From a virus, in UHGV virus genome UHGV-2005300: DNA of 38,727 bases; one strand, given 5' to 3'. The notes under the pieces were generated by a model. It saw nothing but the letters and a program-made list of their open reading frames with translations, searched no databases and was not told where the DNA came from. Below, piece by piece: positions 194 to 12,480 of this stretch (within the stretch, counting starts at the first letter, position 1; every line of letters begins with the position of its first letter). A program made the translations under genes and the position numbers.

Positions 194-394
194 TTACCCA
201 TTGGCGCGGCTTAAGAGCTTATTTTTGAATTCACAATGGTCACGATATAACCATCTTGCTCGTCCGTGGATAACTTTGGCTTTAGGCAGGTCGCCGGACT
301 TAATCCGGTCATAGATGAAGGTCTTACCGAAGCCAGTATCAGCCATGATGAATTTCAAATCAACCAGTGAATCAGGTTGTAGTTCGTGTTGCAT
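194..394 (-). CDS. AlpA-family excisionase / small DNA-binding regulator
   Basis: 66 aa; motif MADTGFGKTFIYDRIKSGDLPKAKV resembles AlpA/Xis-type helix-turn-helix; GGAGA ribosome-binding site; last gene before attL. Confidence 0.6.
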   Translation of the reverse strand: MQHELQPDSLVDLKFIMADTGFGKTFIYDRIKSGDLPKAKVIHGRARWLYRDHCEFKNKLLSRANG

Positions 395-2274: not shown

Positions 2275-2544
2275 CTCTATCTCTTAAAAAAGATGTTAAT
2301 AAGATGCTAACTATTGAAAGGCATAAATATATACTATTCCAACAAACGTTATTTTTAACAAATTTTTTCTCTCCGTTGACTTTTGCGAAAGCCTTGTCTG
2401 GCCTAAATTGCGCGGAAGCTACTTTTTCCTTCCTGAGTTATCCACAGAGTTATGCACTTGCATGTATAACCTATACACACTATCTTAATTCGCAAGACAT
2501 TGATGTTGCGGTATTGAAGGTTCATTGGGTTAAAAATAGACATT

Positions 2545-2575
2545 AAAAAGCCCAGTTGACTAGGCTGGGCTTTTT
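2545..2575. terminator. Bidirectional intrinsic terminator
   Basis: AAAAAGCCCAG-ttgactag-GCTGGGCTTTTT, with an A-run on one side and a T-run on the other. Confidence 0.55.
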
Positions 2576-2612
2576 AAAAGGAAACAGAGTTTGCGGCTCT
2601 GTTCCTGAGCCA

Positions 2613-2801
2613 TAAGTATCTGGCGACTGAATTAAGATTAACCGAATGTACTGGATTCATCAAGAAACGTTGAGTGGTCATACCAGGTAATAATGACCAT
2701 TTACTAAACATCGTTGTTCTCAAAGAAGATTTAAGTCCAGGTTTTTGGTGACTCTAAAACCTTACCTTAACTCGAAATCGTGCCGTAAGTATCTGGCGAC
2801 T
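2613..2801. repeat. Direct repeats TAAGTATCTGGCGACT (2613-2628, 2786-2801), part of a degenerate tandem duplication
   Basis: Two 16-bp copies; the 2771-2790 segment also resembles the 5' end of the small ORF at 2876. Confidence 0.5.
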
Positions 2802-2875
2802 ACAGATATTGCAACTGCAAAGGCAAGCCCAAAGGTATTTGCAGCTAGGCGCGATAAAACTAAGTGAGGCCTGTT

Positions 2876-2959
2876 ATGGTTAACTTACTGTTCAAAATCG
2901 TGCCGCCGATGTTCGCGATTATCAAAGCGATCATTGAGTACGTAAACCAGCGTCCATAA
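2876..2959 (+). CDS. Small hydrophobic peptide (27 aa, MVNLLFKIVPPMFAIIKAIIEYVNQRP)
   Basis: GAGG ribosome-binding site 6 nt upstream; followed by a GC-rich 8-bp stem hairpin at 2973-2997; opposite strand to the surrounding operon; under the ORF-track length cutoff. Confidence 0.35.
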   Translation: MVNLLFKIVPPMFAIIKAIIEYVNQRP

Positions 2960-3014
2960 CGCTAGTTGCTACAGGCCCCATCAAGAGCATGGGGCCTCTT
3001 TATCGTACTATTGC

Positions 3015-3680
3015 TTATTTTTTACGGACTGAGTTGTTCACTGCTCTGGCAATCTTCTCCCGCAATTGCTGCGTTCCGTGGTACTGAACCGCAATATCCC
3101 TCAACTCGTTCACCAGTTCTCGAATCTGGTGATCTTTAAGCTCATTATTTGGGTGATTGGTAACAACTCTGGTTAATTCACCCTTGTCTTTTGCTCTTAC
3201 GTATGCAGCTCTTGTGCATTCGACCCATGTATTACCGCCTACATTAACTTCGTAGATTAGGCTGGACTTATCTGTCAATTCGGAACAAATACGGGCCGTG
3301 GTCTGGCAACTAGAGCATTCGCAGTTATCGCGGAAACCGTGGTCTACTGGCTTCGGTTTCACATCATCAACTTTTTCTACCCTATTGGAATTTAAATACT
3401 TCGAAGCCTTGCTATGCCAATCGCTGGTTTTAGGATCTTGTCCATCCATCAAACGCCAGGCTTCAGCGATTAACTCATAACTAGTGACTGTAGCTTCCTG
3501 CGCATCACCAATAAGTCGTGTAATCTCTCTTTCAAGCCGACCGCCTAGCTCTGTTTTAGTGCAATGTTCTGACCAATCGCCAGCCTCAAGCAGCGCGAGA
3601 ATGCTTAAAATATCGTCCAATAGAACGGTAGTATTATCGACTTCCTTCTGAAACTCACCGGCTACTGATTTATGCATCAT
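3015..3680 (-). CDS. Hypothetical early protein (221 aa)
   Basis: Long intact ORF coupled (ATGA) to the upstream gene; contains a cysteine cluster DNCECSSCQTTARIC; no family recognised by eye. Confidence 0.7.
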   Translation of the reverse strand: MMHKSVAGEFQKEVDNTTVLLDDILSILALLEAGDWSEHCTKTELGGRLEREITRLIGDAQEATVTSYELIAEAWRLMDGQDPKTSDWHSKASKYLNSNRVEKVDDVKPKPVDHGFRDNCECSSCQTTARICSELTDKSSLIYEVNVGGNTWVECTRAAYVRAKDKGELTRVVTNHPNNELKDHQIRELVNELRDIAVQYHGTQQLREKIARAVNNSVRKK

Positions 3681-4187: not shown

Positions 4188-4348
4188 ATCGCATTCAGAT
4201 ATTTGTTTTGATTTACTGATGGAAAAGAATTTCTCTTAAGCAATTCCTCTCTCGATGGCATTGGCTTTACGCGTTGGCGAATAATCATTTCTGCCGGAAG
4301 AATGCCGGGATTGTATGCAAGTCCTCTCATGGTAAATTCCTCAGTCAT
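4166..4348 (-). CDS. Hypothetical small protein (60 aa)
   Basis: Internal ATG of ORF 4166-4480 that overlaps the stop of the upstream 97-aa gene. Confidence 0.35.
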
Positions 4349-4634
4349 TACTGATAGCGCCATAGCGTGAGCGGTAATTACGCAGGCGCGGGTCAATTTC
4401 AGGGAAGTGGGTATATGTGGCTTTGCGGAATGGTCGGATTGATGTCTGGTAAATTCGCTCGCGTTCTTCTTTCTCTGCAAGCCATATACAGTGGCGAAAT
4501 TCCTTTTCCTCTTTCGTTTCCTGCGGTAGAGCCATTATTCGATCGTAGTTTTTTCTGAATTTATCCAGCACCTCCGATACGGAATTGCCGGAACAGCGGC
4601 GTGGGTCATCCGCACCATACAGAGGCGCTGGCAT
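4341..4634 (-). CDS. Hypothetical early protein (97 aa), possibly Abc2-like anti-RecBCD
   Basis: Position downstream of erf and size match my recollection of P22 Abc2; not verified. Confidence 0.55.
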
Positions 4635-4657
4635 AATTAAATCCTTATTTTTCTAAA

Positions 4658-5041
4658 TCAGAATGGGATGGAATCGTCGTATACAGGAGTGTTCTGCTGG
4701 TTACTACTTTGCTGCTGCGGGCCATTTCCTGAAGCTGCAAATCCAATTTTTGCATTCAGTAATTCAAGAGTGATTGATTGACCATTTTGCCCCTGATAAA
4801 CATCAACCCTGATGTTTTCTCCGGTAATTTCCACAATGCCACCTTCAACAAGAACACTACGGTAGTAATCCGCTTGCGCTCCCGGCTTGGCAAATACAAC
4901 GGCGCTGTAGTTTGTCCATTCTTTCTTTTTTGTCTGGCGATCGTAATACTGAACGCCAGCACGGATGTTGAATCCGATATTTTCCCCGGCCTGAAACTCT
5001 CTTGCGGGCTTGTTTAGTCTTACAGTAATCGAATGTGCCAT
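4658..5041 (-). CDS. SSB-like protein (127 aa) with SSB-type C-terminal tip
   Basis: Gln/Gly-rich linker and C-terminus PVYDDSIPF, resembling the bacterial SSB DDDIPF tip; ATG overlaps the erf stop (TAATG). Confidence 0.65.
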   Translation of the reverse strand: MAHSITVRLNKPAREFQAGENIGFNIRAGVQYYDRQTKKKEWTNYSAVVFAKPGAQADYYRSVLVEGGIVEITGENIRVDVYQGQNGQSITLELLNAKIGFAASGNGPQQQSSNQQNTPVYDDSIPF

Positions 5042-5646
5042 TAAGCAGCCGCTCCTTCTAATTCGTCTCGTCTGATGTTGTAAACGCCCTGCGCTTTGTG
5101 CTGCTCCGGTGTGCCTTCGAGCATCTTCCACGCTTTGGCGAACGCCTGTTTAAGCTCTTCTACGGTGTTTTTCTGCATTGCTGCGTCAGTGAATGCTTTT
5201 AGAACCTGTTCAGGTGTAGGTGATGGCTTTGATTGCTTTGCTGCTGCGTTCTGCTGATGTTTATGCTCGTCGGTATCTGCATCTTTCGCATCATCAATGC
5301 CGAATAAACCATTGAGGCAATACTTGCGTGCATAAGAGCTTGTAGCTCCAGTAACTTGTGCAGAATCCATTCCTTTCTTGCTTTCTTCCTCTCGTGCAAG
5401 AGCGGTTGCCGTATGACTGTTTTCGCCATCGGTAATAGTTGCCGTGGCTTTCACGTAATACCGATCACCAATCAACACAACTTCATCGCTGATTGATAAA
5501 AACAGGCCATTCAGTAACGGCTTAACGCCTTCAAGAATGTCTTCGCAGCTTCTGTATTTATATTTGCCGAATGAGTTGTACTGATTCTTTGGCGCGTTCA
5601 GATTCTCCTGAATAGCTGCCAGTCTTGCGTAAAATTCTTTGCTCAT
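5041..5646 (-). CDS. erf: Erf-family single-strand annealing recombinase
   Basis: MSKEFYARLAAIQENLNAPKNQYNSFGKYKYRSCEDILEG matches P22 Erf from memory; first ATG of the ORF. Confidence 0.85.
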   Translation of the reverse strand: MSKEFYARLAAIQENLNAPKNQYNSFGKYKYRSCEDILEGVKPLLNGLFLSISDEVVLIGDRYYVKATATITDGENSHTATALAREEESKKGMDSAQVTGATSSYARKYCLNGLFGIDDAKDADTDEHKHQQNAAAKQSKPSPTPEQVLKAFTDAAMQKNTVEELKQAFAKAWKMLEGTPEQHKAQGVYNIRRDELEGAAA

Positions 5647-5747
5647 ATTATTGTTCTCAGAATGGACACGGCCCAAGGAAATAACGCTGATTTAATACTT
5701 CGACTCGGGACAAATTAAGGCATACCCGCATCCCTTCGCGGTCACCA

Positions 5748-5906
5748 TTATGGCGATACCAGAGAGCTTTCTGCGTGTACATGCGTCTCTGTAACTTGCT
5801 CTCCTTCACTGTGGTTGCAAGTGACATGAATATCTCCTTCGTTACCGATTAAATCTTTCATCTGACGAATGAATTCTTCGTCTGACCAGTTATCTGTAAA
5901 ACTCAT
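5748..5906 (-). CDS. Hypothetical small protein (52 aa, MSFTDNWSDEEF...)
   Basis: ATG overlaps the kil-like stop (ATGA); a competing overlapping 56-aa ORF exists at 5657-5827. Confidence 0.3.
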   Translation of the reverse strand: MSFTDNWSDEEFIRQMKDLIGNEGDIHVTCNHSEGEQVTETHVHAESSLVSP

Positions 5907-6055
5907 TTCCTGCGATACCACGGAAGGTTGATAGCTGATTTCATCGCTTTATTTGCTTCAAGCCACATTTTTGAATCACCAATAAATCTGGCTATTACTG
6001 CTTTGTTCTGTGCAGCACGAAGCATCTGGTGATTAATGGCTATTTCATTGCGCAT
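5903..6055 (-). CDS. kil: Kil-like small protein (50 aa)
   Basis: Segment IARFIGDSKMWLEA resembles lambda Kil as I recall it; GGAGG ribosome-binding site; position after cIII as in lambda. Confidence 0.45.
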   Translation of the reverse strand: MRNEIAINHQMLRAAQNKAVIARFIGDSKMWLEANKAMKSAINLPWYRRK

Positions 6056-6174
6056 AACGCCTCCAGTTGTTTCTTTGCTGCTCTGATTAATTGTTTAACT
6101 CGGCGTGATAATTCAGATTCGTGCGGGTAGAAAGCGGACATGACGCCGCTACCCGCGAGCTGAAAGTGCATCAT
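6040..6174 (-). CDS. cIII: cIII-like small protein (44 aa)
   Basis: MMHFQLAGSGVMSAFYPHESELSRRVKQLIR resembles the lambda CIII core; AAGGAG ribosome-binding site before ATGATG. Confidence 0.5.
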   Translation of the reverse strand: MMHFQLAGSGVMSAFYPHESELSRRVKQLIRAAKKQLEALCAMK

Positions 6175-6257
6175 GGGTAACTCCTTATATTTGATTGCAT
6201 AACGAAAATGCCTCTCGTGAAGCATTATTGGTATGCGGTAAAGCCGCGCTCAGGCGG

Positions 6258-6506
6258 CTACTCTATTTCTTCTTCGAATGATTTTATTAGTCGGTCAATA
6301 ACATCATCCGTTTCAATATCATTTCCGTCTGATTGCTTTAATACATCTATTGATTCTGCAGCGGTAAATTCCATCGCTGTGAGAAACTCGACAATTGTAC
6401 ACTCAACGACATATCGTTCTTCATCTGTACGACATGAGATAAAAGAGCATTTAATTGCTGTTATTACTTTTTGTTTAAGCTCTGCAGGGTAATCAGTTTT
6501 TATCAT
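6258..6506 (-). CDS. Hypothetical acidic protein (82 aa)
   Basis: Intact ORF with GGAG ribosome-binding site; first gene after the terminator at 6519-6548. Confidence 0.6.
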   Translation of the reverse strand: MIKTDYPAELKQKVITAIKCSFISCRTDEERYVVECTIVEFLTAMEFTAAESIDVLKQSDGNDIETDDVIDRLIKSFEEEIE

Positions 6507-6518
6507 CGTTTACTCCGT

Positions 6519-6548
6519 CAAAAAAAACTGCCCTCACATTGGAGGGCA
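6519..6548 (-). terminator. Intrinsic terminator in the leftward early operon (tL-like)
   Basis: Minus-strand hairpin GCCCUC-caaugu-GAGGGC followed by U8. Confidence 0.55.
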
Positions 6549-6670
6549 AAGAAGATTTCCAATAATCAGAACAAGTCGGCTCCTGTTTAGTTACGAGCGA
6601 CATTGCTCCGTGTATTCACTCGTTGGAATGAATACACAGTGCAGTGTTTATTAGTATGCCTGTCTTTTAA

Positions 6671-7568
<898 letters not shown>

Positions 7569-7836
7569 CTGGATTCTCCTGTCAGTTAGCTTTGGTGGTG
7601 TGGTGGCTGGTAGTCTAGCTCCAGCTTGTTGAGTCTCATTCGGAGGGGTATAACCGGCACCCCAGCGATTTTTCCATGCGACAACGTGCGCGTTATGGCG
7701 GCCTTATCGCCCGCGGCTCCCCATCTCGTCCACGCTATTGCTAGCGTTGGGAGCGCTTCACCGCTCAACAGTAGGTAAGCACTTGCCAGTGACTAGCTGG
7801 CTTCACCACACCCCAAAGCCTTCTGCTTTGAATGCT

Positions 7837-7867
7837 GCCCTTCTTCAGGGCTTAATTTTTAAGAGCC
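7837..7867 (-). promoter_or_regulatory. nutL (boxA GGCTCTTAA, boxB GCCCTGAAGAAGGGC)
   Basis: Read on the minus strand; boxB identical to lambda nutL; lies between the candidate pL and N. Confidence 0.8.
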
Positions 7868-7906
7868 TCACCTTCATGGTGGTCAGTGCGTCCTGCTGAT
7901 GGCTAA

Positions 7907-7935
7907 ATAGTACGATTTGTACTTTATCGAGTCAA
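7907..7935 (-). promoter_or_regulatory. Candidate pL (-35 TTGACT, -10 TACTAT) with overlapping dyad AGTACgatttGTACT
   Basis: 17-bp spacer; located between the cI terminator and nutL; dyad at 7909-7923. Confidence 0.45.
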
Positions 7936-7999
7936 TACAAAATGTTCTAAATATAATTAGTTTTTTATAACGCTTTGTATTTAATGGGTTTATATTTTG

Positions 8000-8030
8000 G
8001 AAAAAGAAAACCCGACGCTAAGGTCGGGTT
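8000..8030 (-). terminator. Intrinsic terminator downstream of the repressor gene
   Basis: Minus-strand hairpin AACCCGAC-cuuagc-GUCGGGUU followed by UUUUCUUUUU. Confidence 0.55.
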
Positions 8031-8060
8031 ATTGTTGTGTGTTTTAGAGTTGTGAGGCTG

Positions 8061-8714
8061 TTAACTAAATGTCTCTTCAGGCCACTGGCTGGCGATAACT
8101 TTCCCTACTACGGAACAGCTATCATTGCATGGAATCATTGGATATTGCGGGTTTAGTGGCTGTAGGAACACCTGACCGCTATCCCTGATCAGTTTCTTGA
8201 AGGTAAACTCGTCACCACCAAGTCTGGCTATGCAGAAATCACCTGGCTCAACAGCCTGCTCAGGGTCAACGAGAATTAACATCCCGTCAGGAAAGCTTGG
8301 CTTGGATCCTGTTGGCGCGGTCATGGAATTACCTTCAACTTCAAGCCAGAACGCACAATCACTGGCTTTTTTGGTTGTGCTGACCCATCTCTCCGCATCA
8401 CCTTTGGTAAAGGTTCTAAGCTCAGGCGAGAACATCCCGGCCTGAACATGAGAAAAAACAGGGTACTCATATTGTTTTTTAACGGGGGCAGATGAGTATT
8501 CGCCAACAGGTGAAAATGTACCGTCGTGGTTGAATGAGACGTTATCAATACCAAGGTATTTAAACACCACACCAATCTCGTCAAGAGATGGATGACGAGA
8601 TCCGCGCAACCAGTGACCAATTCCACCCTGCGTCATACCAAGCTCTTCAGCTAACTTCTCTTGAGTTATGCCGAGCTCTTTCATTCTGGATCTAGCCAGT
8701 TCATACCATTTCAT
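8061..8714 (-). CDS. cI: CI/C2-type prophage repressor (HTH plus S24 autopeptidase domain)
   Basis: C-terminal [13 protein letters not shown]...FKKL...LNPQYPMI matches P22 C2 / LexA-like domain; N-terminal [23 protein letters not shown]; start chosen for RBS spacing, alternatives at 8720 and 8762. Confidence 0.85.
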
Positions 8715-8775
8715 TTTCATACCCTTATTATTACGCTCTGTACTAAAACCATCCATGCACAAGATGTATTTTTTG

Positions 8776-8805
8776 TTTGCATTCTAAAAGTACATATCGT
8801 ATTAT
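8776..8805 (+). promoter_or_regulatory. Candidate pR (-35 TTTGCA, -10 TATTAT)
   Basis: About 27 nt upstream of the cro ATG; 18-bp spacer; operators not confidently resolved. Confidence 0.4.
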
Positions 8806-8831
8806 TGTTTCATGGTTACTATGGAGGGCAT

Positions 8832-9047
8832 ATGAGCAACCTACGAAAATATCGAGAGTCACTGAATATCTCTCAAACAACACTTGCTAAGGCAGTTGGA
8901 TGCACACAGGGAGCTATCGGACATTGGGAATCTGGTCGTCGCTTCCCAGACCTTAAAACATGCCGTGCTCTTGTTGAGTGCCTAAACAAGTTGGGCGCAA
9001 AAGTCAGTCTTGATGACGTGTTCCCGCCGGAACACAAAGCCGCTTAA
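8832..9047 (+). CDS. cro: Cro-type HTH repressor (71 aa)
   Basis: GGAGGG ribosome-binding site; HTH LNISQTTLAKAVGCTQGAIGHWESG; divergent from cI; ORF-track ORF trimmed to the RBS-supported ATG. Confidence 0.8.
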   Translation: MSNLRKYRESLNISQTTLAKAVGCTQGAIGHWESGRRFPDLKTCRALVECLNKLGAKVSLDDVFPPEHKAA

Positions 9048-9055
9048 GACATTCC

Positions 9056-9087
9056 CGCTCTTACACATCCCAGCCCTGAAAAAGGGC
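9056..9087 (+). promoter_or_regulatory. nutR (boxA CGCTCTTAC, boxB GCCCTGAAAAAGGGC)
   Basis: Exact lambda-type boxA and boxB just after the cro stop. Confidence 0.8.
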
Positions 9088-9150
9088 ATCAAATTAAACC
9101 ACACCTATGGTGTATGCATTTATTTGCATACATTCAATCAATTGTTATCT
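9088..9150 (+). terminator. tR1-like region (Rho-dependent in lambda)
   Basis: Sequence ATCAAATTAAACCACACCTATGGTGTATGCATTTATTTGCATACATTC matches lambda tR1 from memory. Confidence 0.35.
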
Positions 9151-9166
9151 AAGGAAATACTTACAT

Positions 9167-9460
9167 ATGGTTCGTGCAAACAAACGCAACGAGGCTCTAC
9201 GAATCGAGAGTGCGTTGCTTAACAAAATCGCAATGCTTGGAACTGAGAAGACAGCGGAAGCTGTGGGAGTTGATAAGTCGCAGATCAGCAGGTGGAAGAG
9301 GGACTGGATTCCAAAGTTCTCAATGCTGCTTGCTGTTCTTGAATGGGGCGTCGTTGACGACGACATGGCTCGATTGGCACGACAAGTTGCTTCGATTCTC
9401 ACCAATAAAAAACGCCCGGCGGCAACCGAGCGTTCTGATCAAATCCAGATGGAGTTCTGA
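9167..9460 (+). CDS. cII: Transcriptional activator CII
   Basis: 97 aa [47 protein letters not shown]... essentially lambda CII from memory. Confidence 0.9.
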
Positions 9461-9492
9461 GGTCATTACTGGATCTATCAACAGGAGTAATT

Positions 9493-9637
9493 ATGACAAA
9501 ACAACTCAGTCCTTACCAGGACAAAATTCACAAACACATACTACGTGATCGCTTCCTGTCCAGCTTCAAGCAGCCTGGTCGATTCCGGGCTGAGTTGGAA
9601 AAAGTGAAGCTGATGCAGAAGGAGAAAGGTCATGAGT
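9493..9637 (+). CDS. Hypothetical small protein (48 aa) between cII and O
   Basis: AGGAG ribosome-binding site 5 nt upstream; stop overlaps the O start; under the ORF-track cutoff. Confidence 0.4.
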
Positions 9638-10492
9638 AATCTTGCAACCGTAACACATTTAAGGCCTTCACAACGGCCTGTGGAGCGTCGTGTGGCAGAA
9701 GTTGAAGATGGTTATACCCGTCTTGCAAATGCCCTGTATGAAGAGCTTATCGGCGCAGATTTAACGAAAAATCAGAGCAAGGTTGCCCACGCCATATGCC
9801 GTAAAACATACGGCTACGGTAAAAAGATGGATCGCATCTCTGATAGTCAGTTAGCTCAAATTACCAGGCTGCCAAGACAGAAGGTAAACAAGGCCAAGAA
9901 TGAGCTTATCGCGATGAAGGTAATCCTTCGCGAAGGCCAGCAAATCGGGCCTAACAAGAACATCGAGGAATGGCAAATCGAAGGGTGTCACTACTCTGGT
10001 GATAATGTCACTGCATTGGTGACAAAAAGTGTCACCAAAACGGTGACAGCGCTGTCACCAAAACAGGGACACACAAAAGAAACTATTACAAAAGAAAAAA
10101 GAAATAATAAAAACACTATGTCCGAAAGTGTTCGGACGGAGTGTGAAAAATCATCTGACCGTCACGAAGAAACCGACAAGGCATTCGAGGAAATATTCTG
10201 GTGTGCAGGCATGCGGAAAGCCGGGAAGAAAAACGCAGCTTCAGCATTCAGAACACAGTTCAGGGAATGGCGTAAAACTACCAAGGGTACGGCAAGCGAG
10301 TTTGCCACGATGCTGGCAGAAGACATCGCATGCAGGAATGGTAAGCAGTTCGGATTCGACAGGTTGTTACCATCGAGCTACCTGAACGGTCAGCGCTGGA
10401 ACGACGAGAAGCCAGAAACTATTCAACCACAATCCAAACCATCATCCGCAATCACCGTATCGAAAACTGGCTACGTGTTTTTCGACAGGTGA
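9632..10492 (+). CDS. O: Replication initiator O (lambda-O-like N-terminal domain, different C-terminal domain)
   Basis: N-terminal segments [13 protein letters not shown] and [20 protein letters not shown]...[16 protein letters not shown] parallel lambda O; iterons inside the gene. Confidence 0.85.
9980..10115. repeat. Replication origin: GTGACA/TGTCAC iterons followed by an AT-rich tract
   Basis: Repeated TGGTGACA / TGTCACCA units at about 9984-10066, then an A-rich stretch to about 10115, inside O as in lambda ori. Confidence 0.6.
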
Positions 10493-10495
10493 ACC

Positions 10496-10603
10496 ATGAA
10501 ATCAAAAATCAAATCGCTACTGGTCGCTGGTTATAACCACGGCTGGTTAAGTATTTCGTTTGTCGATTTCTGGTTTAAAAATCTCAATCTGAGGGAATCA
10601 TGA
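10496..10603 (+). CDS. Hypothetical small protein (35 aa) coupled between O and the helicase
   Basis: Starts 4 nt after the O stop; its stop overlaps the next ATG (ATGA); under the ORF-track cutoff. Confidence 0.3.
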   Translation: MKSKIKSLLVAGYNHGWLSISFVDFWFKNLNLRES

Positions 10604-12480
10604 CGCCAAGTGAACTCAGTGACCTGCTTTGGGCGCAGGTTGACAGGGTGGCTCCGCACCTGTTGCCAAACGGCAAGAAAGAGGGGCATGAGTGGGTTGC
10701 CGGTAACGTCAACGGTGACAAGGGAAACAGCCTTAAGGTCAACCTTAGCGGCAAGAAAAAATGGGCTGATTTCGCTGAGGGAGACGGCGGTGACATGCTT
10801 GATTTGTGGATGGCATGTCGTGGAATTAACCTGCATCAGGCTATGCAGGAAGCGAAAGCCTTTCTCGGAATCAAGGATGACGATCACCATTTCGATGCCA
10901 AACGTGAGAAGAAATTCTCCAGACCTGACCGCAAGAAAATCGCCCGCTACGTTACCAGAACAGAATCCCATCTTGAGTACCTGCAATCGCGTGGCATATC
11001 GCCAGAAGTCGTAAAGCGCTACGAGGTTGTCAGCGGCAAGGTGTGGAATGGAGAACGAGAACTTGATGCACTGGTGCTTCCGTACAAGCGCGATGGTGAG
11101 TTGTTGCAGGTCAAGCGAATCAGCACTGAGCGCCCGGACGGGAAGAAAGTCATTATGGCAGAAGGTGATTGCGAACCTTGTCTGTTCGGATGGCAGGCTC
11201 TGGACGCTGGCGTGAGGGCGGTTGTACTTTGCGAAGGCGAAATTGATTGTATGAGCTATGCGCAATACGGCATCTCGGCGTTATCCGTGCCGTTTGGTGG
11301 CGGGAAAGGCGCTAAGCAACAGTGGATTGAGTTTGAGTATCACAACCTCGACAGGTTTGAGGAAATATTCATCTCGATGGACGTTGATGATGTTGGTCGT
11401 GAGGCCGCAAGGGAAATCGCAAGCCGACTCGGTGAACATCGTTGCCGTCTTGTTACTCTGCCGTACAAAGACATCAACGAATGCCTGATGAACGGTGTTA
11501 CCGAGGATGAAATCTGGCAGTACATCGGCACGGCATCCTACTTCGACCCTGAAGAACTCTACAGCGCGCGAGAGTTTTACCAGGACACTATCAACGCTTT
11601 CTACGGCAAGCAGCAGTATCTGTTTAATCCACCGTGGGAATCTCTGGCAGATAAATTCCAGTTCCGTGAGGCCGAGTTGACGCTGGTCAATGGTGTGAAC
11701 GGTCACGGAAAAACGGAGGTTGTCGGGCATATGGCACTTGAGGCAATGCGTCAGGGTGTGAAGACGTGCATCGCGTCACTTGAGCTGAAGCCTGGTATTC
11801 TCCTTAAGCGCCTTACCCGTCAGGCGACGTGCTGCAAGATGCCGCCAGTGCTGGAAATTGACTCTGCATTTAAATTTTATGACGAAAGACTTTGGGTGTT
11901 TGGCCTGACCGGAACGGCGAAAGCCGACAGGCTGATCGAAATATTCGACTACGCTCGCCGCCGATACGGGATCCAGTTATTCATCATCGACAGCCTGATG
12001 AAATGTGGCATAGGCGACGATGACTATAACGGGCAGAAGGCGTTTGTTGACTCGATTTGCGACTTCAAAAACAAAACAAACTCCCACGTCATTCTCGTTA
12101 CTCACTCGCGAAAAGGAGACAGCGAAGAAAAACCAACCGGGAAAATGGACGTAAAAGGCTCTGGAGCGATAACAGACCTGACAGACAACCTTTTCATCAT
12201 CTGGCGTAACAAGGCTCGCGAGAGAGCGTTACAGAGAGTTCAGAGTGGTGAAAAGATGTCAGAGAAGGACGAACAGCTACTGGCATCTCCGGCATCTGTT
12301 TTGATGCTTGAAAAACAACGTAACGGCGAAGGTTGGGAGGGTGGTGTCCCGTTGTTCCTTGACGAGCAATCGCACCAGTTCCTGCAACTTGAATCAGGAT
12401 CGCCATATAGCTACATCGCCAATATGCCGAAATCGGAATATGACGAGGCGTGGCGACAGGAAAACGTGACGGAGTATTAA
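10600..12480 (+). CDS. Replicative primase/helicase fusion (primase-like N-terminus plus DnaB/RecA-fold helicase)
   Basis: 626 aa; Walker A GVNGHGKT and Walker B-like LFIIDSL in the C-terminal half; occupies the lambda P position. Confidence 0.85.
   Translation: MTPSELSDLLWAQVDRVAPHLLPNGKKEGHEWVAGNVNGDKGNSLKVNLSGKKKWADFAEGDGGDMLDLWMACRGINLHQAMQEAKAFLGIKDDDHHFDAKREKKFSRPDRKKIARYVTRTESHLEYLQSRGISPEVVKRYEVVSGKVWNGERELDALVLPYKRDGELLQVKRISTERPDGKKVIMAEGDCEPCLFGWQALDAGVRAVVLCEGEIDCMSYAQYGISALSVPFGGGKGAKQQWIEFEYHNLDRFEEIFISMDVDDVGREAAREIASRLGEHRCRLVTLPYKDINECLMNGVTEDEIWQYIGTASYFDPEELYSAREFYQDTINAFYGKQQYLFNPPWESLADKFQFREAELTLVNGVNGHGKTEVVGHMALEAMRQGVKTCIASLELKPGILLKRLTRQATCCKMPPVLEIDSAFKFYDERLWVFGLTGTAKADRLIEIFDYARRRYGIQLFIIDSLMKCGIGDDDYNGQKAFVDSICDFKNKTNSHVILVTHSRKGDSEEKPTGKMDVKGSGAITDLTDNLFIIWRNKARERALQRVQSGEKMSEKDEQLLASPASVLMLEKQRNGEGWEGGVPLFLDEQSHQFLQLESGSPYSYIANMPKSEYDEAWRQENVTEY

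Follow-up and report, generated by a model that had tools for sequence, protein, structure and literature searches.

A predicted single-stranded DNA-binding protein of the HK97 gp40 type beside erf in a lambdoid phage genome, and its host-type C-terminal tip

HK97 gp40 received the name "SSB-1b" in 2025, in a Genome Research survey of the recombination modules of lambdoid phages, in which its AlphaFold-3 fold was reported to resemble those of bacterial single-stranded DNA-binding proteins (SSBs), with an identity to ES18 SSB-1 of at most 15% (PMC12315714). According to the survey authors, gp40-like proteins have had no experimental study, and the C-terminal tail of gp40 is not mentioned in the survey (PMC12315714); our own literature search found no experimental paper on the gp40 family.

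Two better-studied systems show how an SSB may cooperate with an annealing protein. In HK620, whose pair is the experimental paradigm, the neighbouring SSB stimulates annealing and recombineering by Sak4, and both this stimulation and the binding of Sak4 to SSB-coated ssDNA depend on NDYPPF, the hexapeptide at the end of the SSB (PMC5928155). The HK620 protein (HkaK, "SSB-2") is like the SSB described here in that its gene adjoins an annealing-protein gene and its acidic tip ends in PF, but it is of a different SSB sequence type and is paired with a Sak4 core rather than with Erf. Its PPF tip is also present in members of the gp40 family from Serratia and Rahnella prophages. In λ, binding of the E. 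coli SSB C-terminal (SSB-Ct) peptide by Redβ needs the C-terminal three-helix bundle of Redβ as well as Phe177 of SSB, and recombination in vivo depends on the Redβ–SSB interaction (PMC6393309). A C-terminal three-helix bundle is common to Redβ and to the Erf protein of the phage studied here, in the latter case by prediction, whereas λ has the host SSB only and this phage has an SSB gene of its own.

Here we describe this gene, ssb, in a 38,727-nucleotide stretch of viral DNA (UHGV virus genome UHGV-2005300, hereafter the window). It copies HK97 gp40 almost exactly, a phage SSB type that is common and has been described before, and its identification is not new. What goes beyond the published record is the family-wide occurrence of a host-type tip, the co-occurrence of this tip with a portable partner module, and the presence of family members at chromosomal ssb loci. 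As a whole, the evidence is best explained, with good probability in our judgement, by a diverged SSB that would hand ssDNA to the coupled Erf through its tip.

The ssb gene and its place in the phage genome

The window appears to be the complete, circularly permuted genome of a mosaic temperate lambdoid phage, with an excisionase-like gene at 194..394 and an integrase gene at 37333..38526 (both on the minus strand), an N-like antiterminator gene at 7245..7568, likewise on the minus strand, and virion genes downstream. It is highly mosaic: any single phage record covers at most 48% of its first 25 kb. A 151-aa open reading frame at 1758-2213 on the minus strand is matched by UmuD-like phage families over its first ~85-96 residues only, the rest being unrelated; it is probably a umuD-like gene that has been frameshifted or truncated.

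The ssb gene (gp40-type, SSB-1b) is located in the early-left operon at 4658..5041 on the minus strand, stop codon included, as assigned from its translation, its match to PHROG_44 and its identity with HK97 gp40. Translation of 5041..4661 gives exactly 127 aa, MAHSITVRLNK...QQQSSNQQNTPVYDDSIPF, followed by a TGA stop at 4660..4658; the product of the minus strand over 4658..5041 is written MAHSITVRLNKPAREF...GPQQQSSNQQNTPVYDDSIPF. Upstream of it lies erf (5041..5646, minus strand, ATG at 5646), which encodes a single-strand annealing protein of 201 aa (PF04404, E 2e-44, residues 5-143) and whose start is fixed by homologues beginning MSKEFYA. The erf frame closes with GAA GGA GCG GCT GCT TAA, the end of the gene being written ...GAAGGAGCGGCTGCTTAA. 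Its TAA (5043..5041) and the ATG of ssb (5041..5039) have the A at 5041 in common, forming the TAATG that is read directly from the minus strand at 5039..5043. The Shine-Dalgarno sequence of ssb, AAGGAG, is likewise read directly within the last erf codons (5052..5057, minus strand), 10 nt 5' of the ATG, and a promoter/terminator scan found neither element between the two genes. In a mechanical list of open reading frames the longest one in the ssb frame begins at a GTG at 5131 and would encode 157 aa; the 127-aa product is preferred because essentially all homologues start at the ATG, with M-[AS]-H-[ST]-[IV]-T. Third in the recombination module comes the anti-RecBCD gene abc2 (4341..4634, minus strand; PF11043, E 2e-63; PHROG_656), which begins 23 nt downstream of ssb. 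The order erf-ssb-abc2 is that of HK97, with ssb between the annealing-protein and anti-RecBCD genes of a lambdoid Rec module.

The product is 94.5% identical to HK97 gp40 over 127 aa and 100% identical to the copy of an Stx1a phage, and it matches PHROG_44, "single strand DNA binding protein", with an E value of 2.9e-27. HK97 gp40 is annotated with 129 aa as against 127 aa for the window copy; otherwise there is essentially no difference, the order erf-gp40-abc2, the start/stop overlap and the predicted SSB-like fold being the same. Among the closest relatives of the window protein, the visible differences lie in the linker that follows the folded domain. At the DNA level, erf-ssb-abc2 is 96-98% identical to HK022, HK97, HK106, HK542, mEp and several Stx-converting phages. 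The exact protein sequence is present on at least 1000 public contigs, under labels that range from "hypothetical protein" (NCBI) through "Bacteriophage HK97 gp40" (UniRef) to "single-strand DNA-binding protein" (JGI).

Fold and C-terminal tip

In direct searches the protein stays below the level of curated SSB families. It has no match in Pfam, scores 13.5 bits (E 0.069) against TIGR00621, for which the cut-off is 53.95, and gave nothing significant in direct sequence searches of PDB and NCBIfam. The relationship to SSB was detected by profiles and fold comparison only. The family is small: a first search gave 318 clusters at 90% identity, no more than 180 representatives were collected at 50% identity and E≤1e-3 among 1.84 billion proteins, and a search seeded with one distant member gave 1097 clusters. 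The family profile, built from 136 diverse members, matched the K. pneumoniae SSB (7f2n, E 1.5e-5) and yeast mitochondrial Rim1 (E 2.6e-4) in the PDB, and hhalign aligned it with E. coli SSB over the entire OB domain at 95.5% probability (E 1.5e-8). Taken individually, 10 of the 136 members reach PF00436 at E≤0.01. In the hhalign alignment, Y33, W42, F50 and Y82 fall on W40, W54, F60 and W88 of E. coli SSB, which we take to be its ssDNA-stacking residues (PDB 1EYG), and these columns are aromatic in 112, 136, 135 and 102 of the 136 members, respectively.

The AF2 model has a mean pLDDT of 88, with values of ~97 across most of residues 1-100. It contains strands at residues 3-8, 14-18, 21-34 and 39-51, a helix at 55-63, and further strands at 69-74, 76-84, 87-95 and 98-103; after residue 104 the pLDDT is 50-70, and it lies below 50 at residues 108-112. 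All 46 Foldseek matches in the PDB at E≤1e-3 are bacterial or mitochondrial SSBs or PriB. Membership of the T7 gp2.5-like SSB/annealases, which would call for an OB fold with the long extra helix of gp2.5 and for gp2.5 as the closest fold match, was tested and rejected. The gene may thus be divided, on the minus strand throughout, into a predicted OB-fold domain (residues 1-104, 4730..5041; from AF2, Foldseek, hhalign and the conserved aromatics), a linker rich in Q/N/S/G/P and predicted to be disordered (residues 105-119, 4685..4729; from the pLDDT, and hypervariable among homologues), and a C-terminal tip of the SSB-Ct type, VYDDSIPF (residues 120-127, 4661..4684; from the family consensus).

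E. coli SSB (PF00436/TIGR00621; PDB 1EYG, 1EQQ, 4MZ9) has in common with the window protein the OB fold, the four aromatic positions, a disordered linker and a D-D-x-I-P-F end, at an identity of ~15%. A two-residue N-Y insertion after the W54 equivalent is nearly invariant in the gp40 family and absent from E. coli SSB. The acidic tip carries two Asp in the window protein and three in E. coli SSB, and the linker of ~15 residues is shorter than that of E. coli SSB, a protein of 178 aa with a linker of roughly 55 residues.

Judged from these profiles and the structural model, the ssb product belongs genuinely to the SSB superfamily but has diverged strongly. The first-pass annotation had called it a compact SSB-like protein and named OB-fold prediction as a check; the OB fold with a disordered tail in the AF2 model, the SSB and PriB matches and the hhalign probability all agree with it. 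Because the thresholds of the curated SSB families were failed, the protein is filed under gp40/SSB-1b and not under PF00436. It could still be argued that such an OB-fold protein does not bind ssDNA, being a PriB-like adaptor or a decayed remnant whose tail resemblance is functionless, as PriB structures do occur among the fold matches and the query does lie below those thresholds. We hold this to be very improbable: the DNA-stacking aromatic positions are conserved family-wide, the tip has been kept although the linker before it is hypervariable, the exact sequence has been retained on at least 1000 contigs, and PriB is not known to carry an SSB-type tail. We infer that the window protein binds ssDNA, and a functional SSB-type binder with a functional tip is, in our estimate, highly likely.

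The tip is a property of the family and not of this copy alone. An x-P-F terminus is found in 207 of the 332 full-length-like family representatives, and in 19 further representatives the motif stands 1-2 residues from the end or is followed by an extension. The last eight positions, computed from the 207 members with x-P-F, are occupied by D (34%), F (51%), D (72%), D (68%), D (48%), I (75%), P (100%) and F (99%), and the resulting consensus, DFDDDIPF, is identical to the C-terminus of E. coli SSB. The tail after the OB domain varies from 12 to 116 residues and is Q/N/P/G-rich and unalignable, until the final residues align again, together with the ...MDFDDDIPF end of the K. pneumoniae SSB. 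In the window protein this tail measures 23 residues, towards the short end of the family range, and its tip keeps the aromatic residue at -7, two Asp and I-P-F. The tip is conserved in homologues of as low as ~30% identity, and such persistence next to a linker that varies so freely is the mark of a functional docking motif.

Both the consensus and the share of x-P-F termini bear out the SSB-type tip that the first-pass annotation had recognized, and conservation in homologues speaks against the coincidence that it had named as a possible refutation. What that annotation observed is confirmed in each element, and its interpretation is right in essentials. Its word "mimicking" stands only in part: the resemblance to host SSB is real, but "mimicry" is probably the wrong word for a family remotely homologous to bacterial SSB. 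As far as can be judged from sequence comparison, the tail is more likely inherited or shared than convergent, since the SSB homology and the chromosomal members described below fit a shared tail better than mimicry.

Some departures from the terminal motif were recorded in passing. Near-identical prophage copies (L154, L160; P0004, P0005) have tip variants at the penultimate proline, namely DDSIQF, VDIHF and DDSILF, which recall the P176S defect of E. coli ssb-113 and may mark decaying copies. In L005 (3001-3534), P0125, P0154 and P0168 the D-x-IPF motif is internal and precedes a conserved ~15-residue extension, "IPFAP[IV]GLQ...". The SSB of Yersinia phage vB_YenM_21.09, considered as a tip-less member, was ruled out as such, its translated locus ending in DFDDDIPF.

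Since the tip is of the host type, it would probably also engage host SSB-client proteins. One could go further and take this engagement as its main role, with the tip recruiting or titrating E. coli SSB clients (Pol III chi, PriA, DnaG, RecO, RecQ, RecJ, ExoI and others) on phage ssDNA while Erf works alongside, an arrangement that would aid recombination-dependent replication or blunt host nucleases and that is compatible with a hand-off to Erf. The identity of the last-eight consensus with the E. coli SSB-Ct, and the residues retained in the window tip (I-P-F, two Asp and the aromatic at -7), favour such a role. So does the EPxxDFDDDIPF motif of the chromosomal members, which agrees with the E. 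coli tail at 10 of 12 residues and would imply that the tip can serve a whole host interactome. What weighs on the other side comes from the genes next to ssb.

Annealing-protein partners and the Erf C-terminal module

Neighbourhoods were compared at 70 non-identical loci, taken from annotated phages, from species-representative genomes and from contigs in IMG/VR. A viral scan with a 35-sequence alignment returned near-identical E. coli prophage copies only; a scan of genomes, together with scans that started from distant members, supplied the diversity of loci. Among 50 diverse loci with an upstream open reading frame on the same strand, 25 have a 1-nt overlap with an upstream annealing-protein gene, and the coupling to erf through TAATG that had been proposed at first reading is thus seen in the window sequence and, as the same -1 gap, in half of these loci. 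The overlapping upstream gene usually encodes Erf in Enterobacterales prophages; its product is a Sak4-like AAA_24 ATPase in two prophages, one of Serratia and one of Leminorella, and belongs to the Rad52 family in Yersinia phage vB_YenM_21.09. The Erf-SSB order is kept in Vibrio phages at 44-51% identity, and marine phages at a greater distance have, upstream, a gene for a Mu-Gam-like protein, for a RecE/YqaJ-like exonuclease or for an annealing protein resembling Erf. Because the neighbours in the loci examined are recombination genes, gp40-type ssb is a component of the recombination module across the family.

This pattern also bears on a more general alternative, in which the protein is a phage replication SSB, its position in the recombination module reflects mosaic gene order, and it has no specific link to Erf. 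The family does contain apparent housekeeping ssb genes, and no SSB is listed for the Rec modules of λ and P22 (PMC12315714), so that neither Erf nor Redβ would strictly need one to function. We nevertheless find this alternative rather improbable, given that the loci examined adjoin annealing, Gam-like and exonuclease genes and not genes of replication initiators or helicases, and that the start/stop overlap persists even where the family of the annealing core has changed.

The candidate for the partner site is the C-terminal part of Erf, here called module A (residues 140-201; 5044..5229, minus strand), which AF2 predicts to be a three-helix bundle (pLDDT 88; helices at 10-23, 27-40 and 46-64 of a 66-residue construct) and which is our proposed dock for the tip. 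A module A of ~50 residues, with the consensus ...L..FT.AA......ELK.AF..AWK.L.GT..Q.KAKDVY.IRK.ELE..., is common to the Erf, Sak4-like (AAA_24) and Rad52-like cores encoded upstream of gp40-type SSBs, and the loci that carry it include L002, L003, L088-L094 and L153-L170. Annealing proteins ending in module A stand upstream of tip-bearing SSBs in phages of Enterobacterales and Vibrio. A module-A HMM identified 23 loci, and all 23 have an IPF/PPF-type tip, intact in 21 and with a single substitution in two (IQF, IHF). None of the 12 remaining tip-less SSBs follows a module-A protein (Fisher p=0.01, a value confounded by relatedness). As all module-A loci come from Enterobacterales or Vibrio phages, the association between tip and module is confounded by shared ancestry. 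A correlation of IPF versus PPF tips with subtypes of module A was considered and ruled out, L092 combining a PPF tip with an "IPF-type" module.

Tip-less SSBs that follow Erf proteins (L123, L125, L171) are paired with Erfs that have nearly the same N-terminal core and unrelated C-termini; these SSBs end in ...NFNQPQR, ...GGYNNNRG or ...PPGHRR. The tip-less pairs lie at 4455-4973 and 5001-5513 in L123 and at 2453-3016 and 3021-3503 in L125, with others in L171 and represented by P0137 and P0261. One alternative Erf C-terminus reads "QWIEAVKQDAGVLNQIVEPAYKQFI", and a similar motif ends some SSB family members themselves, P0137 ("NWVTAINSNGSTLDAIIDETYRAYIATLL") among them; this may point to another interaction module, one able to sit on either partner.

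Module A reaches beyond the gp40 family. It is ~40-45% identical in P22 Erf and in the RecT-type proteins of phiV10-like phages, and its presence there means that the module is not specific to gp40-type SSBs. No SSB is listed in the P22 Rec module (PMC12315714), and in P22 only the DDDIPF tip of the host would be available, which fits a module that reads a generic SSB tip. Module A has no sequence similarity to the C-terminal domain of λ Redβ (hhalign probability 0.1%), and the structural comparison of the two brought out no specific match. A search of a set of 5.8 billion proteins with the C-terminal 59 aa of Erf gave only 15 fragments. The module-A profile also met a segment of colicins E2/E3/E9 ("QAKAVQVYNSRKSELDAA"; PDB 2ysu_B, 1ujw_B, 5ew5_A) at E 0.0013, which we set aside as probably a coincidence between helical segments. 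Overall, module A looks like a shuffled partner-interaction domain.

We now return to the host-client role. Many tip-bearing members of the family, phage members included, follow genes without module A, as would be expected if the tip served the host interactome in the first place. Against this stand the conserved, tight translational coupling to the annealing protein, the occurrence of tip-less members exactly where the C-terminus of the partner Erf differs, and the HK620 precedent, in which the cognate annealing protein is the client. As the main role of the tip, engagement of the host interactome is therefore a serious possibility that we nonetheless judge less probable than not being the case.

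The hand-off to Erf is preferred because of the analogy with HK620 and Redβ and because of the domain anatomy, and it can be sketched as follows. The SSB would be made in fixed proportion to Erf from the early-left operon through the TAATG overlap, and its OB domain would coat the ssDNA arising from phage DNA ends and replication. The short flexible linker would expose the ...YDDSIPF tip for binding by the C-terminal three-helix module of Erf, so that Erf would be loaded on SSB-covered ssDNA and annealing stimulated, while Abc2 would protect the substrate from destruction by RecBCD. For the docking step taken by itself, that is, the tip seated on the C-terminal module of Erf, we regard the chances as evenly balanced on the present analysis.

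Chromosomal relatives and meaning for the family

A gp40-type protein of 206-215 aa is encoded directly after a conserved MFS transporter gene in 12 species-representative genomes, belonging to Rheinheimera spp. and to Alteromonadaceae/Gammaproteobacteria MAGs, with MFS transporters that are 73-84% identical among them. Their 10-kb flanks hold a divergent uvrA, the MFS gene and the gp40-type gene among ordinary chromosomal genes, and no phage genes. In L119, for example, uvrA lies at 5327-8164 on the minus strand, the MFS gene at 8436-9827 and the gp40-type gene at 10001-10636; the other chromosomal loci are L121 (9588-10235), L105, L108 and 8 more. This is the uvrA-MFS-ssb arrangement of the Pseudomonas type. 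The chromosomal protein has no Pfam or TIGR SSB match and is labelled "hypothetical protein" by RefSeq/PGAP. It shares 50% identity with the window protein in the OB domain and resembles E. coli SSB in its last 12 residues only (EPSIDFDDDIPF vs EPPMDFDDDIPF), where it bears the tail motif EPxxDFDDDIPF. Gene position and sequence together suggest that in these bacteria a gp40-type OB domain may act as the housekeeping SSB or may have taken its place, and the members at this chromosomal locus also suggest that the gp40 type can act as a genuine SSB.

For the window itself, the finding is of little importance, ssb being a routine and very common prophage gene, although its database label, mostly "hypothetical protein", could safely be changed to phage SSB, gp40/SSB-1b type. 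The family is of wider interest, as it shows how an essential fold can drift below the thresholds of curated models while its tail persists. More tentatively, and less probably than not, the gp40 type may be a distinct and mobile SSB lineage with two traits that have gone unreported. In Rheinheimera and related Alteromonadaceae it would have replaced, in place, the OB domain of the essential ssb at the uvrA-MFS-ssb locus, with retention of the host-type EPxxDFDDDIPF tail; in phages it would address interchangeable annealing cores through a portable three-helix module at their C-terminus that reads the DDxIPF tip, so that tip and module would follow a matching code. Compatibility of the SSB tail is known to affect the performance of phage annealing proteins in a given host (PMC6393309, PMC13490951), and for this reason a cassette of Erf and its cognate SSB with a mapped docking module could serve recombineering. 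If the matching code is true, the type of tip and the type of module would together predict which annealing proteins, whether Erf, Sak4-like, Rad52-like or RecT, are compatible with which SSBs.
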